Positions 3,265 to 6,837 of a stretch of 8,953 nucleotides of DNA are shown here, piece by piece; within the stretch, counting starts at the first letter, position 1, and each line of letters opens with the position of its first letter. The translations under genes were made by a program, and so were the position numbers. Source of the stretch: a virus (taxonomy: Duplodnaviria > Heunggongvirae > Uroviricota > Caudoviricetes); the IMG/VR virus record IMGVR_UViG_2778261447_000007, positions 1-8,953 of that record. One strand, given 5' to 3'. The notes beneath the pieces were generated by a model that did not search any database, had not been told where the DNA came from, and was given only the letters and a program-made list of their open reading frames with translations.

Positions 3265-3690
3265 TCAATGCACAGCCACAGCATTTCCGGCCGGGCCACC
3301 ACGGTTGATCTGGTTGAAGCCAGCTATTGCCACCGCGACAAAATCATCAGCGTCTCTCACCAGTCGTTCCCGCATCTCCACCAGCTCCCGAAAATAAGCT
3401 GAACTGTGGCTGCGCATTCTGGCCACCAGCAAAGGTGGCATTGCCTTTTCGATCGCTGGTAACAACGCCTGAATTTTTTCAACTGCATCAGGGGTGTCTT
3501 TCTCTACCCAGCGGAAAATTTTCTGGGTATTACGCGCCAGGGCTTCAGGGTGGCTGTCGTCGTACAGTTCCGGGAACGTCATACCCAGTTCGAAATACGC
3601 TTTGGTAATTTTCGCAGCCGGTACTTTTTCGCCGTCCGGATGCGCCCAGGCATTCATCGCCATGCGGATGTGCTCATGTTTGATTTTCAT
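3265..3690 (-). CDS. ydaT: YdaT-like protein (141 aa; cII-analogue position in Rac-like prophages)
   Basis: ATG at 3690 overlaps the stop of the upstream Cro-like gene (ATGA). Position and size fit the second gene of the Rac ydaS-ydaT operon; N-terminus 'MKIKHEHI...' recalled as YdaT-like. Not verified by alignment. Confidence 0.65.
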   Translation of the reverse strand: MKIKHEHIRMAMNAWAHPDGEKVPAAKITKAYFELGMTFPELYDDSHPEALARNTQKIFRWVEKDTPDAVEKIQALLPAIEKAMPPLLVARMRSHSSAYFRELVEMRERLVRDADDFVAVAIAGFNQINRGGPAGNAVAVH

Positions 3691-3974
3691 GAATCAACCC
3701 CATCAACTTTTTTGGTGTTAAGCTCATATTTATGACTTGAAGGGGGCGTAATTCCGGTGTATTCCGGCCATATAAGATCCCAGTCATTCGGCCTCAACTC
3801 TCTTCTTGTAACATGCCCTGCAGTTTCTGCTTCTATCATTAACGCACGAACAGGAGACACTGGTGAACTGCCAGATGCCATTTGAGACAAGAAGGACGGA
3901 GACACACCAAGGTTGGCAGCAAATTTTTTTGCTTCTCCAGTTTTTAATGATTTGATGAATTCCTTTAGAGTCAT
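3687..3974 (-). CDS. ydaS: Cro-like HTH regulator (YdaS-like), first gene of leftward early operon
   Basis: ATG at 3974 (M12 of the 3687..4007 ORF, whose upstream start is TTG). 'LKEFIKSLKTGEAKKFAANLGVSPSFLSQMASG' is an XRE/Cro-type HTH. Divergent from the repressor gene. Confidence 0.7.
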   Translation of the reverse strand: MTLKEFIKSLKTGEAKKFAANLGVSPSFLSQMASGSSPVSPVRALMIEAETAGHVTRRELRPNDWDLIWPEYTGITPPSSHKYELNTKKVDGVDS

Positions 3975-4010
3975 GATTTCGATCTCAACATACTTTAGTG
4001 CAAGCAAAAG

Positions 4011-4077: not shown

Positions 4078-4449
4078 ATGGAAACAAGAGAGATTCGGCG
4101 TTTACGCCTCAAAGAGTGGTTCAAAGACAGAACTTTGCCACCCAAAGAGAAAAGTTACTTATCTCAGTTAATGAGCGGTAAGGCTACGTTTGGCGAAAAA
4201 GCAGCTAGACGTATTGAACAAACATATGGGATGCCAGGGGGTTATCTTGATATTGAGCCAGAAGACATAACAGAGTCTCCATCATCAAGAGCTATAGCAT
4301 TAACCCCTAACCAGCTGGAATTGCTACAAATATTTAGTGCATTTCCTGATAATGAACAGCAAGAGATCATAAAAGAACTAAGAAACAAAAAAGAAGCAAT
4401 GGAAGATTTTGTCGCACGTTGGTTGGCGCAGCAAGGTCGCCGCGCCTGA
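4078..4449 (+). CDS. Prophage repressor candidate (RacR-like/cI-analogue HTH regulator, 123 aa)
   Basis: Divergent from the Cro-like gene across about 100 bp. HTH-like 'KSYLSQLMSGKATFGEKAARRIEQTYGMPGGYLD'. C-terminal module is homologous to the downstream PaaR-like protein. No Shine-Dalgarno; a GATAAT -10 sits 8 nt upstream of the ATG. Confidence 0.65.
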   Translation: METREIRRLRLKEWFKDRTLPPKEKSYLSQLMSGKATFGEKAARRIEQTYGMPGGYLDIEPEDITESPSSRAIALTPNQLELLQIFSAFPDNEQQEIIKELRNKKEAMEDFVARWLAQQGRRA

Positions 4450-4483
4450 TGGGAAGCATACTCTTAAAAACAAGATATATCAG

Positions 4484-4882
4484 ATGGGTGTACTCGAAAT
4501 TAGTGCTCTTAGAATTAGGAAGCTTTTGTTGGTAACAGGCTGGAGCCAGGCAGAACTTGCGCGCAGAATTGGCATTACTCAACAATCCGTTCAAAGATGG
4601 GTTTGTGGTATCTCAAGCCCTACAGCAGCTAATCTAGATAAACTATCTGAAGCAACAGGATATCCTCAGTATTGGTTCTTCTTACCGTTAAATGAAGAAA
4701 AAAATGACAGAATACAAGATATAATAAAAATAACTCCTAGGCAAAAGGAGCTACTTCAAACATTTGAGGCATTTCCAGAGGAAGATCAAGAGCAAATGCT
4801 TCAGGAGATGAAAGACAAAAAAGAGTTAATGGATCGCACAATTGAAAGATGGCTCGCTGCCCGGAAAGGGCATCGGGCATAA
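4484..4882 (+). CDS. paaR: PaaR-like HTH transcriptional regulator of a three-component ParE toxin-antitoxin system (paralogue of the upstream repressor)
   Basis: ATG at 4484 preferred over the TTG at 4409, which would overlap the upstream gene by 41 nt. XRE-type HTH 'WSQAELARRIGITQQSVQRW'. C-terminus 'ITPRQKELLQTFEAFPEEDQEQ...ERWLA' aligns with 'LTPNQLELLQIFSAFPDNEQQE...ARWLA' of the 4078..4449 product. Directly upstream of the antitoxin and toxin genes. Confidence 0.6.
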   Translation: MGVLEISALRIRKLLLVTGWSQAELARRIGITQQSVQRWVCGISSPTAANLDKLSEATGYPQYWFFLPLNEEKNDRIQDIIKITPRQKELLQTFEAFPEEDQEQMLQEMKDKKELMDRTIERWLAARKGHRA

Positions 4883-4911
4883 TGACCACCATACACAGAC
4901 GGAGGTGTGCC

Positions 4912-5103
4912 ATGAATACGGCCCTTTCACCAATGGTTTCTGAGTTTGAAACTATTGAACAAGAAAACAGTTACAACGAATGGCTGCGAGCCAAAGTAGC
5001 TGCAAGCCTTGCAGATCCGCGCCCAGCAATTCCCCATGACGAAGTTGAGCGCAGAATGGCAGAACGCTTTGCTAAAATACGCAAGGAACGGAGTGAACAG
5101 TAA
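4912..5103 (+). CDS. paaA: PaaA-like antitoxin (63 aa) partnered with ParE
   Basis: ATG at 4912 with GGAGG Shine-Dalgarno 6 nt upstream; TAA stop abuts the parE ATG. 'MNTALSPMVSEFETIEQENSYNEWLRAKVA...' matches the PaaA2 antitoxin of E. coli O157 paaR2-paaA2-parE2 as recalled. Confidence 0.7.
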   Translation: MNTALSPMVSEFETIEQENSYNEWLRAKVAASLADPRPAIPHDEVERRMAERFAKIRKERSEQ

Positions 5104-5388
5104 ATGTTACCTGTGTTATGGCTTGAAAGCGCAGATACCGACCTGGATGATATAACTAGTTACATTGCTCGTTTCGACATAGATGCGGCAGAACGCTTAT
5201 GGCAGCGATTAAGGGGGTGTGTGCTGCCATTATCCGAACATCCGTATTTATACCCCCCAAGCGACAGAGTGCCAGGCTTACGTGAGATTGTGGCTCACCC
5301 CAATTATATAATTCTGTACCGCGTGACAACCTCAAGTATTGAAATAGTAAACGTAGTCCATACCCGCCGACAGTTCCCTGTAACATAA
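5104..5388 (+). CDS. parE: ParE/RelE-superfamily toxin (ParE-like, 94 aa)
   Basis: Immediately follows the antitoxin stop. Size and sequence character ('LWLESADTDLDDITSYIARFD...IVAHPNYIILYRV') typical of ParE toxins. Confidence 0.8.
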   Translation: MLPVLWLESADTDLDDITSYIARFDIDAAERLWQRLRGCVLPLSEHPYLYPPSDRVPGLREIVAHPNYIILYRVTTSSIEIVNVVHTRRQFPVT

Positions 5389-5413: not shown

Positions 5414-5441
5414 AACACTCTCAAAGAGAGTGTTATTTTTT
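5414..5441 (+). terminator. Rho-independent terminator ending the repressor/toxin-antitoxin transcription unit
   Basis: Perfect 9-bp stem AACACTCTC (5414-5422) / GAGAGTGTT (5426-5434), 3-nt loop, followed by A then T6 (5436-5441); 26 nt after the parE stop. Confidence 0.85.
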
Positions 5442-5462: not shown

Positions 5463-5490
5463 TTGACTGTTAAGTTTATTTTTGTATAAA
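5463..5490 (+). promoter_or_regulatory. pL-like sigma70 early promoter (TTGACT-N16-TATAAA) directed toward the 72-aa ORF and RecE-like gene
   Basis: TTGACT 5463-5468, 16-nt spacer, TATAAA 5485-5490. Flanked by GTTAAGTT direct repeats (5450-5457, 5469-5476) and a TTTAGT motif shared with the pR-like region. Confidence 0.55.
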
Positions 5491-5678
5491 CTAATTTCAC
5501 CAACCCACCCCGCCCCACAGAACGCAGGGCAATACTTCGAGTTACCAGGCAGTGGTCAGGGGTTAAGTAGCCAGCCCGAGGCGTATGAACATGACGGCAG
5601 GGTTTAACTTTAACTATGCAGCAGGTTTTTGTTCCGCTACCCCGGCGTTAAGGGGAAACAGCACTGAGAGAAATCAGT

Positions 5679-5897
5679 ATGCAGAAGCGAGAACCCGTCA
5701 TCATCGCGCCAGACTATACCGATGATGAACTTTATGAGTGGATGCGCCAGAAAATTAAGGCAGCGCAGGACCTGAAATGGGCCAATGAAGCCAGGGCTAA
5801 GCAGGCTGAAAATCTGTCCGCTCTGGAGCAGGATATCACCAATCTGGAAAAAGCAGCGGCATTAAGCATTGCCAGAATGATTACATACCCGCGTTAA
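5679..5897 (+). CDS. Hypothetical small early protein (72 aa), first ORF downstream of the pL-like promoter
   Basis: ATG at 5679 with GAGAG upstream. Predicted helical, charged; 'ENLSALEQDITNLEKAAALSIARMI' looks coiled-coil-like. No Arg-rich N-like motif. Function unknown. Confidence 0.5.
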   Translation: MQKREPVIIAPDYTDDELYEWMRQKIKAAQDLKWANEARAKQAENLSALEQDITNLEKAAALSIARMITYPR

Positions 5898-6248
5898 TAG
5901 CTAACCAACGAAGCTAAGGTTGGTAATTAAGGAGTTCTCCACGGGTAAGGTGGAGTACGTGCGCCGGACACGGGTGAGCATCCGGCACTGACAGTTTACT
6001 GAAAGGATATTTCCCTGAAAAGTCAGACCATAACGCGAAAGCGCACGGCGAGGTAGCTGGTTCATAGATAGTCTGTCGTTAAATTTTCGTCGACCGTGCG
6101 CTTCCGGTTGTGGCACTCCGCGAAATGGCGCGGCGTAATCATGGCGGGGTACCCTTCCCCTTGAGGACACCGGGTTGTCAGGCTGACCATGCGCCTGAGT
6201 GACAACCCCGCTGCAACGCCCTCTGTTATCAATTTTCTGGTGACGTTT

Positions 6249-6291
6249 GGCGGTATCAGTTTTACTCCGTGACTGCTCTGCCGCCCTTTTT
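6249..6291 (+). terminator. Possible intrinsic terminator (GGCGG...CCGCC stem then T5), weak
   Basis: GGCGG 6249-6253 pairs with CCGCC 6281-6285, followed by C and T5 (6287-6291). Loop is long (27 nt, with an internal CAGT/ACTG stem), so non-canonical. Confidence 0.3.
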
Positions 6292-6295
6292 AAAG

Positions 6296-6443
6296 TGAAT
6301 TTTGTGATGTGGTGAATGCGGCTCAGCGCACGCGGAACAGTTAAAACCAAAAACAGTGTTATGGGTGGATTCTCTGTATCCGGCGTTAATTGTTAACTGG
6401 TTAACGTCACCTGGAGGCACCAGGCACCGCATCACAAAATTCA
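6296..6443. repeat. 17-bp imperfect inverted repeat pair (16/17) flanking a ~114-bp segment that contains tandem GTTAAC palindromes
   Basis: Left arm TGAATTTTGTGATGTGG (6296-6312); right arm CCGCATCACAAAATTCA (6427-6443) is its reverse complement with one mismatch. Interior has GTTAACTGGTTAAC (about 6393-6406) and CCTGG-aggca-CCAGG. Confidence 0.6.
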
Positions 6444-6460
6444 TTGTTTAGGACGCGATA

Positions 6461-6643
6461 ATGGAAACGTTATTACCAAACGTCAATACGTCTGAAGGTT
6501 GTTTTGAAATTGGTGTCAGAATCAGTAACCCTGTATTTACTGAAGATGCCATTAATAAGAGAAAACACGAACGGGAGCTATTAAATCAAATATGCATTGT
6601 TTCAATGCTGGCCCGTTTACGCCTGATGCAAAAAGGACGCTGA
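6461..6643 (+). CDS. Hypothetical small protein (60 aa)
   Basis: ATG at 6461, 17 nt after the right inverted-repeat arm, with AGGA upstream. Stop is 2 nt before the next ORF start. No family recognised. Confidence 0.4.
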   Translation: METLLPNVNTSEGCFEIGVRISNPVFTEDAINKRKHERELLNQICIVSMLARLRLMQKGR

Positions 6644-6645
6644 CA

Positions 6646-6837
6646 ATGAATACAGCATTTGCACTCGTTCTGACAGTTTTTCTTAATACAGGCGAACCAG
6701 TCGATCTTGTTATTGGTATACATGACTCAATGAAAGAATGCATGGCTGCCGCAGCGGAACAGAAAATTCCCGGCAACTGTTATCCGGTTGATAAAGTTAT
6801 TCGCATGGACAATAACGAAATCCCGGCTGGTCTTTAA
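6646..6837 (+). CDS. Small protein (63 aa) with hydrophobic N-terminus and conserved Cys; possibly DUF1482/YebW-like
   Basis: ATG at 6646 (M19 of the 6592..6837 ORF) with AAGGA Shine-Dalgarno. 'MNTAFALVLTVFLNTGEPVDLVIG...C...CYP' resembles YebW-type small prophage proteins as recalled. Uncertain. Confidence 0.45.
   Translation: MNTAFALVLTVFLNTGEPVDLVIGIHDSMKECMAAAAEQKIPGNCYPVDKVIRMDNNEIPAGL

Follow-up and report, generated by a model that had tools for sequence, protein, structure and literature searches.

The prophage products DicF and DicB inhibit division of the host cell, reprogram its sugar metabolism and cause exclusion of other phages. Separation of cistrons by RNase III hairpins of about 20 bp is established for the lambda N leader and T7 early RNA. 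In E. coli K-12 the dicBF operon is transcribed from dicBp as one polycistronic transcript (PMC10448788, PMC5069750, PMC9438474), in which RNase III creates the 5' end of a 190-nt DicF precursor (PMC10448788) and the 53-nt DicF requires RNase E, which produces its 5' end in a subsequent step (PMC10448788, PMC5069750, PMC9438474). The 3' end of DicF is formed by its own terminator, and RNA that reads through this terminator is cut by RNase III to yield a 72-nt form; terminated and read-through transcripts both exist (PMC10448788). Loss of RNase III also removes upstream RNAs that contain ydfA (PMC10448788, PMC5069750, PMC9438474). DicF processing is known only for the K-12 and EHEC copies (PMC5069750, PMC10448788, PMC9438474), and all three papers cite Faubladier et al. 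1990 for it.

The window analyzed here is a stretch of 8,953 nucleotides of viral DNA, and our analysis concerned positions 5898-6460 within it. This segment is a functional structured and processed RNA, yet one that belongs to the well-studied DicF locus and is therefore already known; it matches the “long untranslated region containing dicF” of the dicBF operon (PMC5069750). The best overall explanation, which we consider very probable, is that the spacer serves as a processing scaffold for the Hfq-dependent sRNA DicF in the dicBF operon. For annotation this means that an intact DicF gene and its processing signals are present, that there is no call for a 149-aa ORF on the minus strand, and that the region is not unexplained.

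Identity and genomic setting of the spacer

Judged by its sequence, the segment is the untranslated ydfC-dicB intergenic spacer of a Qin-type lambdoid prophage and belongs to its early-left operon (pL-like, “dicBF”). Over its full 563 nt it has 95.6% identity to the K-12 Qin ydfC-dicB intergenic region, and the gene order ydfC-DicF-dicB-ydfD is common to K-12 Qin and lambdoid phages including Tritos, where DicF is annotated; in the window, the ORF after dicB encodes a DUF1482/YdfD protein by Pfam. A covariance-model search of the whole window against Rfam, a check proposed in the first-pass annotation, from which DicF is absent, resulted in the identification of full-length DicF (RF00039; model positions 1-52 of 52 at 6235-6286, plus strand) with 76.7 bits against a gathering score of 48 and E = 5e-16. 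The features of the operon segment are as follows.

5463-5492, plus strand: promoter-like site TTGACT-18-TAAACT from a consensus scan only, the putative pL/dicBp-equivalent operon promoter
5679-5897, plus strand: ydfC (72 aa), the last gene upstream, of which the region forms the 3' UTR; 96.7% identity to K-12 and Tritos ydfC, and annotated as ydfC in phage records
5898-6027, plus strand: ydfC-proximal spacer, mosaic, with hairpins at 5903-5924, 5937-5955, 5963-5986 and 5988-6026
6028-6113, plus strand: H1, a long hairpin whose irregular stem has 18-22 bp (core 6036-6051/6090-6106) and whose apical loop, about 38 nt long, is hypervariable
6107-6217, plus strand: three-way junction, nearly invariant, from the RNAalifold consensus
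6107-6114/6210-6217, 6118-6122/6129-6133, 6146-6159 and 6172-6183/6193-6208, plus strand: junction helices H2, H3, H4 and H5, respectively
6218-6234, plus strand: A/U-rich single-stranded linker (…GUUAUCAA/UUUUC…; AUCAA|UUUUC), with the putative RNase E cut that would make the DicF 5' end
6235-6291, plus strand: DicF sRNA with its terminator; Rfam positions 1-52 correspond to 6235-6286, and the 53-nt form starts at 6234
6249-6285 and 6287-6291, plus strand: DicF intrinsic terminator hairpin, from folding, and its U-tail
6294-6445, plus strand: downstream domain of about 150 nt, the dicB 5' leader
6294-6314/6425-6445, plus strand: long-range helix of 19-21 bp, which encloses hairpins 6318-6333, 6382-6408 and 6410-6424 and a variable insert at about 6337-6380
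6450-6453, plus strand: dicB Shine-Dalgarno sequence AGGA
6461-6643, plus strand: dicB coding sequence (60 aa); Pfam DicB PF05358, E = 1.5e-37, and annotated as dicB in relatives

The dicBF operon of K-12 Qin, ydfABC-dicF-dicB-ydfD (Faubladier et al. 1990; Balasubramanian et al. 2016; Ragunathan et al. 2023), represents the same locus and shares with the window ydfC, dicB/ydfD and an identical Rfam score for DicF, and the published 190-, 72- and 53-nt species of K-12 map onto structures found in the window. The window operon differs from that of K-12 Qin in that it is without most of ydfA and all of ydfB, and its immunity region is a different one that includes a PaaR/PaaA2/ParE module; DicB has 60 aa rather than the 62 of K-12, and there are small differences in H4 and H5. 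An intact DicF/DicB copy that sits behind a ParE toxin module and an immunity region other than that of K-12 illustrates the travel of this cassette between prophages. Homology to other dicB operons starts at 5499-5503, directly 3' of the promoter-like site, which is preceded by a terminator-like hairpin at 5414-5434; given the altered ydfA/ydfB and immunity region, we only infer the operon promoter and its regulation in the window. An internal promoter was rejected, as the consensus scan returned no plus-strand promoter-like site within 5898-6460 and the two minus-strand matches in the region reflect the chance rate (3 found vs. 2.0 expected).

Among 5426 complete E. coli genomes, 4630 carry some part of the 563-nt region, and the 69-nt stretch 6218-6286, which contains DicF, is present in 3953, mostly at identities of at least 99%. 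Elsewhere in the window, weak Rfam matches to CRISPR-DR57 (253-291) and ZEB2_AS1_2 (3483-3527), both with E of about 0.6, were dismissed as chance.

The first-pass annotation had found no convincing coding frame on either strand and had taken the 149-aa minus-strand ORF for an artefact, while allowing for a decayed gene remnant. Both of the former statements were borne out. That the region is a decayed coding gene or an unannotated small protein gene is hardly credible: ORFs do exist (the 149-aa one on the minus strand and several of 25-60 aa), and relatives have extra genes inserted directly upstream, but Pfam returned no match for the minus-strand ORFs of 149, 60 and 56 aa, and the longest stop-free stretch on that strand varies from 65 to 152 aa across 62 homologues, so that the size of the ORF is not maintained. 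The three codon phases have nearly equal shares of variable columns (43/93, 47/97 and 43/94), which leaves no codon periodicity; in the variable blocks, homologues differ by indels whose lengths are not divisible by 3 and which would shift any frame, and a plus-strand ORF of about 25 aa from the ATG at 6126 ends after 4 codons in the consensus. The remnant, for which neither a homologue nor codon periodicity nor ORF conservation was found, is not supported.

Structure and conservation

For comparative analysis, 87 DicB-encoding loci, selected by DicB similarity, were gathered and 62 distinct copies of the region were aligned; a scan of genome contigs contributed 7 loci only, and the diversity came from IMG/VR. 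Homology among the loci is mosaic, with the part from about 6018 to dicB common to nearly all of them. Nearly invariant blocks (pi 0.016-0.06) alternate with blocks that have been replaced wholesale (pi 0.23-0.35, with many gaps), the latter comprising the H1 apex, the H4 loop region, the sRNA cassette and the insert at 6345-6380. The invariant non-coding blocks are less variable than the third codon positions of dicB (0.084), and most of them fall below positions 1-2 (0.045-0.049), despite the choice of loci by DicB similarity.

The whole 563 nt fold with z = -4.65, and the RNAalifold consensus contains 103 pairs in 15 helices. Across 59 distinct homologues, 99.5% of 6074 sequence-by-pair cells hold standard pairs, as compared to 35-48% when the partners are slid by 1-3 columns. 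Substitutions in stems are nearly all pair-preserving transitions through G-U, while true double changes are restricted to 3 pairs and 7 cells, values that a shuffle control reaches 25/500 and 4/500 times; compensatory changes lie in H1 and H4 and, with kilR-type loci added, in hairpin 6382-6408. The structural support is therefore mainly conservation with pair-compatible drift, and covariation is thin, the sequences being very similar. Fold prediction with covariation across related prophages, which the first-pass annotation had put forward as a check, showed conservation of the stems, with covariation proper at these 3 pairs. The annotation's caution that most elements are short enough to occur by chance fails for the main ones, considering the z-score of the whole and the retention of the stems in 62 homologues; in terms of energy, only 5898-6027 and the junction alone are not unusual.

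The ydfC-proximal spacer (5898-6027) is of unremarkable folding energy, with z = -1.69 and 10/200 shuffles as good. It occurs in only some relatives, where its stems are kept and loop bases vary; homology breakpoints fall at query positions 21, 43, 61 and 121, and in PPompW/Stx2 phages 654 bp with two annotated ORFs are inserted in it. H1, by comparison, has z = -4.57, with 0/200 dinucleotide shuffles as good. The 10-bp perfect stem reported earlier (6039-6048/6094-6103) exists and is contained in a 13-nt inverted repeat (I2; 6036-6048/6094-6106) as the core of this hairpin of about 20-22 bp. The stem of H1 is present in 31 of the 31 sequence variants while its apex is exchanged (pi 0.04-0.06 in the arms vs. 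0.35 in the apex), and two of its pairs show compensatory changes.

Each helix of the three-way junction has 98-100% of its cells paired, with pi of 0.03-0.05, and in H4, 4 sequences carry a compensatory change from GC to AU. The folding energy of the junction alone is not unusual (z = -1.16). The bulged stem previously placed at about 6173-6208 proved real and is the H5 arm of this junction, with z = -2.76 and 2/200 shuffles as good. GUUGUGG at 6107-6113 has two possible partners, 6028-6034, which lengthens H1, and 6210-6217, which forms H2, so that the two alternatives compete; folded as a single sequence, the 190-nt precursor has no well-defined structure (z = -1.06, MFE frequency 0.001). 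A tRNA-like reading of the junction was dropped, ARAGORN having given no match.

Folding is more stable for the plus strand than for the minus strand (-37.0 vs. -30.8 and -61.2 vs. -52.6 kcal/mol). In addition, G-U accounts for many of the conserved pairs, and in RNA of the opposite strand each of these would become an A·C mismatch; because of these two properties we place the constraint on the plus-strand RNA. They also bear on the idea that the conserved blocks act as DNA, either as recombination “linker” homology of mosaic lambdoid phages or as protein-binding palindromes. The alternation of invariant and replaced blocks, with breakpoints clustered at block edges, would fit such a role, as would the block at about 6385-6405 (GTTAATTGTTAACTGGTTAAC), which is palindromic and has two GTTAAC sites. 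However, a DNA role does not explain the G-U pairs or the advantage of 6-9 kcal/mol for the plus strand, pairing is maintained by compensatory changes, and RNA processing is documented at these places in K-12 (PMC10448788). We consider a DNA-level explanation unlikely, with the reservation that DNA and RNA roles are not mutually exclusive.

Termination and processing of DicF

The fold of DicF consists of 14 unpaired nt, a hairpin of -15.9 kcal/mol and UUUUU, that is, a single-stranded seed followed by a Rho-independent terminator with an Hfq-type 3' end. This terminator (6249-6291), in the middle of the region, is the sole real intrinsic terminator of 5898-6460. The seed is complementary to dicB codons 6-9 (6476-6485, 10 nt perfect) and to 6403-6411 (9 nt), matches that are probably due to chance; pairing of the seed with dicB was rejected, its duplex energy being marginal relative to shuffles (p of about 0.02-0.05) and stronger duplexes being available elsewhere in the window.

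With a terminator ahead of dicB, one may ask whether part of the region is a cis-acting put- or nut-like antiterminator RNA by which RNA polymerase could pass that terminator and go on to transcribe dicB and the recombination genes, and the first-pass annotation had listed an antitermination element among its options. A motif at 6013-6026, CCCUGAAAAGUCAG, is reminiscent of lambda boxB, but this hairpin has only 4 bp in the window and is missing in many relatives. The operon of intact relatives runs past the intrinsic terminator into exoVIII, the interval from the putative promoter to ydfC has no evident N-like gene, and terminated and read-through transcripts coexist in K-12 (PMC10448788), all of which would suit such an element. 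On the other hand, the put element of HK022 is a two-stem RNA of about 70 nt near the early promoter that makes RNA polymerase resistant to terminators, and putL is said to be promoter-proximal, whereas about 530 nt or more separate the structured blocks of the window from its putative promoter. We compared the region with the HK022 early control region at 27.6-30.1 kb, which presumably holds putL and putR (they are unannotated there, and an inverted-repeat search did not locate them); blastn-short gave only 9-11-mers (E >= 0.27) and nhmmer no match. Lacking similarity there and an Rfam match, and with an unfit position, an HK022-type put antiterminator is not supported on sequence grounds, read-through activity aside, and we regard a put- or nut-like antiterminator in the region as very improbable.

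[quoted passage not shown] To place the K-12 cleavages on the scaffold, product sizes were counted from the DicF 3' end, which gives extrapolated positions to within a few nt. The 5' end of the 190-nt pre-DicF would then lie at about 6097-6102 in the 3' arm of H1, a candidate RNase III site, and the sequence printed in Fig. S1 of PMC10448788, which starts in the H1 apical loop, is consistent with a 5' end in H1. The three-way junction would form the 5' body of this precursor. The RNase E cut would fall within 6218-6234, the A/U linker that separates the junction from the terminator hairpin, two structures that may serve to position the cut; the linker is unpaired in the consensus structure, and the DicF model begins at 6235. 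The 3' end of the 72-nt form would map to the 5' arm of the long-range helix, near 6305, marking a putative second RNase III site.

RNase III substrates comprise at least 20 bp (about two turns) of mostly continuous double-stranded RNA, and both helices are of this kind, H1 having 18-22 bp with one bulge and the long-range helix 19-21 bp. We infer cleavage at these two helices from the RNase III-dependent 190-nt and 72-nt species of K-12. A staggered cut in H1 would leave a ydfC mRNA that ends in a stem, which fits the reported stabilization of upstream RNA by RNase III, and removal of the H1 5' arm may, speculatively, let the three-way junction close by means of the GUUGUGG switch. Cleavage of the long-range helix would free a dicB mRNA whose leader, only about 15-25 nt long, retains the Shine-Dalgarno sequence, while the DicF terminator would act as an attenuator that limits dicB expression. 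Taken together, two RNase III helices would uncouple the fates of the ydfC mRNA, DicF and the dicB mRNA.

In its double-stranded RNA of about 20 bp between cistrons, whose cleavage would separate functional units, the region is like the lambda N leader and the T7 early RNA hairpins; it is unlike them in that the released unit is a trans-acting sRNA that is finished by a second nuclease, RNase E. The 3' UTR-derived or intra-operonic sRNAs SroC, CpxQ and MicL share with DicF an early intrinsic termination and an RNase E cut of an mRNA, with flanking stem-loops likely to position the cut (PMC9438474), and DicF departs from these by its added RNase III dependence and by a structured upstream leader of about 340 nt. 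The comparative data point to testable mutations for a pathway whose structural basis we found nowhere laid out in the literature searched.

The domain upstream of dicB and its kilR counterparts

The first-pass annotation had the region end in a weak terminator-like element. This reading did not hold, since no plus-strand terminator-like site was scored in 5898-6460 and the 3' end is instead the long-range helix domain (6294-6445), the fold of which has z = -6.65 with 0/200 shuffles as good. The long-range helix is an inverted repeat (I1) of 19 nt with 95% complementarity; 99.8% of its cells are paired, and its changes are only G-U-compatible. The paired blocks of the domain have pi of 0.016-0.024, and in hairpin 6382-6408, the addition of kilR-type loci brought out swaps in neighboring pairs (GC to UA, UA to GC).

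An Rfam match of 6288-6481 to STnc100 (RF02076) has 36.7 bits and E of about 1e-5, below the gathering threshold of 47, and three relatives score 32.2-33.7 bits against the same 47. Membership in STnc100 was rejected, all four copies being below threshold, and the resemblance is remote only. What the domain shares with the STnc100/PasD prophage sRNAs is a closing helix …GGUGAAU…/…CACC… and a terminal hairpin CC(N)GGAGGCACC(N)GG, as well as being prophage-borne; the reported location of STnc100 and PasD is the late region, close to Q and stx, in contrast to the window domain, which lies in the pL operon.

Beyond DicF processing, the conserved flanks could have a regulatory role in their own right, in which the downstream domain gates a toxic division inhibitor (dicB, or kilR in Rac), for example through RNase III-dependent stability or translation of the mRNA. 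KilR is a small division inhibitor directed at FtsZ. The domain also occurs without dicB: in Rac-SA53 and in the Shigella Stx phage 75/02 it lies, together with a DicF-like cassette, 20 nt upstream of kilR. This kilR-type junction is found in at least 120 IMG/VR contigs, and KilR follows in 80 of the 80 kilR-type contigs examined. Exchange or loss of the sRNA cassette and of the upstream modules leaves the domain invariant, and it is more conserved than DicB codon positions 1-2. Against a gating function, the dicB Shine-Dalgarno sequence is not clearly sequestered, its possible partners being weak U·G pairs with the terminator U-tail only, and the conservation could reflect a DicF 3'-processing site or recent horizontal spread. 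We regard this putative leader role in dicB/kilR output as a serious possibility, albeit one we would not favor over its opposite. Should it be real, the leader might be an RNase III-gated switch on a toxin mRNA.

Comparison with the region upstream of Rac kilR shows what is held in common: a GGCGG…CCGCC-U5 cassette, the 150-nt long-range-helix domain, a small FtsZ-targeting inhibitor, and then ydaE/racC/recE. Rac differs in the 5' part of the sRNA, in its downstream gene, kilR being unrelated to dicB, and in that the H1/junction modules are usually missing. The terminator cassette ahead of the domain in kilR-type copies is DicF-like but has another 5' part, and H1 plus the three-way junction are kept in only about 11 of 77 kilR-type loci. 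No complementarity was found between the seed of the Rac-type cassette and kilR. The similarity of Qin and Rac was probably already reported by Faubladier and Bouché in 1994.

These patterns suggest a broader and more doubtful proposal, which we consider less likely than not: the DicF flanks would be a modular RNA platform (H1 plus junction; 150-nt leader) that hosts exchangeable cassettes and provides a common leader for dicB and kilR, with the leader itself a selected regulatory RNA. If so, prophages would diversify a host-targeting sRNA by cassette swaps within a fixed processing scaffold. The modular scaffold and the shared dicB/kilR leader are the only possibly new points of this work, and we do not claim them as new.

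The cassettes of the loci as a whole fall into at least five kinds, with the GGCGG…CCGCC-U5 terminator in common and a single-stranded 5' region that varies from kind to kind. Only the canonical cassette reaches the Rfam threshold for DicF, one further type scoring 34 bits and two types giving no score. In the complete E. coli genomes, the canonical cassette was found in 3953, type B in 158 and type C in 90.

A structured leader common to dicB and kilR

The ~150-nt domain closed by a long-range helix, which in the window (6294-6445) follows DicF and precedes dicB, was also found in Rac-type prophages and in Stx phages, where it lies directly 5' of kilR as the leader of that gene; the kilR-leader domain is present in at least 120 IMG/VR contigs. 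Given its position 5' of both dicB and kilR, the domain is a structured leader common to these two unrelated division-inhibitor genes.

Copies of the domain on the kilR side, equivalent to window 6281-6445 (coordinates of each homologous locus)
L093, 2001-2158: Rac-SA53
L094, 2001-2248: Stx phage 75/02
L095-L174: further kilR-side loci

Replacement cassettes and seed complementarity at the DicF position

Many prophages carry other sRNA-like cassettes in place of DicF, with the conserved flanks retained on either side. At least five cassette seed types were distinguished, all of which have in common a GGCGG…CCGCC-U5 terminator, and most of them fell below the Rfam threshold for DicF (34 bits or no match). 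Among 5426 E. coli genomes, the type B cassette was present in 158 and type C in 90.

Replacement cassettes, equivalent to window 6218-6291 (locus coordinates)
L031, ~2255-2320
L011, 2262-2312
L059, ~2270-2320
L093 (Rac-SA53), ~1925-2000

We identified two stretches of perfect complementarity to the 5' seed of DicF, one of 10 nt pairing 6241-6250 with 6476-6485 (dicB codons 6-9) and one of 9 nt pairing 6239-6247 with 6403-6411 in the downstream leader. Compared with shuffled sequences, the energy of the seed duplexes was marginal only (p about 0.02-0.05), and no complementarity was found between the Rac-type seed and kilR. The complementarity of the DicF seed to dicB and to the leader is probably a matter of chance.

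Sequence changes within the spacer and the dicB operon

The direct repeat CACGGGT(A/G)AG is present at 5940-5949 and 5969-5978. Two relatives (L063 and L080) have lost exactly the 29 nt separating these repeats, a deletion which looks like the outcome of slippage or recombination. At 6013-6026, CCCUGAAAAGUCAG(GG) is reminiscent of the lambda boxB hairpin GCCCUGAAAAAGGGC; the stem at this site is only 4 bp in the window and 6 bp in many relatives, and the hairpin is missing where a locus becomes homologous at 6018.

In three relatives, an insert of ~890 bp separates dicB from the domain downstream of DicF. Two RNAs, isrK (61-65 bits) and a C4 antisense RNA (71-78 bits), lie in this insert, a P1/P7 immI-like module.

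Relatives bearing the insert (locus coordinates)
L039, 1687-1875
L085, 1693-1878
L087, 1687-1875

At 5499-5660, the operon in the window has lost ~300 bp relative to phage Tritos and K-12, so that ydfB is missing entirely and ydfA for the most part; the junction lies at ~5655-5658, an out-of-frame 46-aa ORF (5585-5725) is left behind, and L056 and L062 share this deletion. Similarity to other dicB operons begins at 5499-5503, directly past a promoter-like site (5463-5492). DicB (6461-6643) is 60 aa in the window compared to 62 aa in K-12, and presumably differs at its C-terminal end. The 81-aa ORF listed at 6592-6837 is most likely YdfD with a predicted start at ATG 6646, given that residue 22 is where its match to DUF1482 starts.

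Neighbouring immunity region and records with unrelated hosts

Features of the immunity region
3268-4007, minus strand: genes at the cro/cII position, YdaS-like (PF15943) and YdaT-like (PF06254)
4409-5388: three-gene module between the repressor-side genes and a putative pL-like promoter

YdaS/YdaT-like genes are likewise found in the racR-ydaST module of Rac. At the repressor position, the 123-aa ORF (4078-4449) had no match in Pfam. In the three-gene module, a 157-aa HTH regulator is joined by the antitoxin PaaA2 (PF21217, E = 2e-20) and the toxin ParE (PF05016, E = 2.5e-16), an arrangement which resembles the PaaR2-PaaA2-ParE2 system of O157 prophages; a terminator-like hairpin (5414-5434) lies downstream.

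E. coli-type DicF/dicB sequence (88-98% identity) also appeared in records given unrelated hosts, namely MT713136.1 (Aeromonas phage AP1), PP818812.1 (Actinobacillus phage) and L008 (a MAG labelled Veillonella parvula), probably through contamination or mis-binning of those records.
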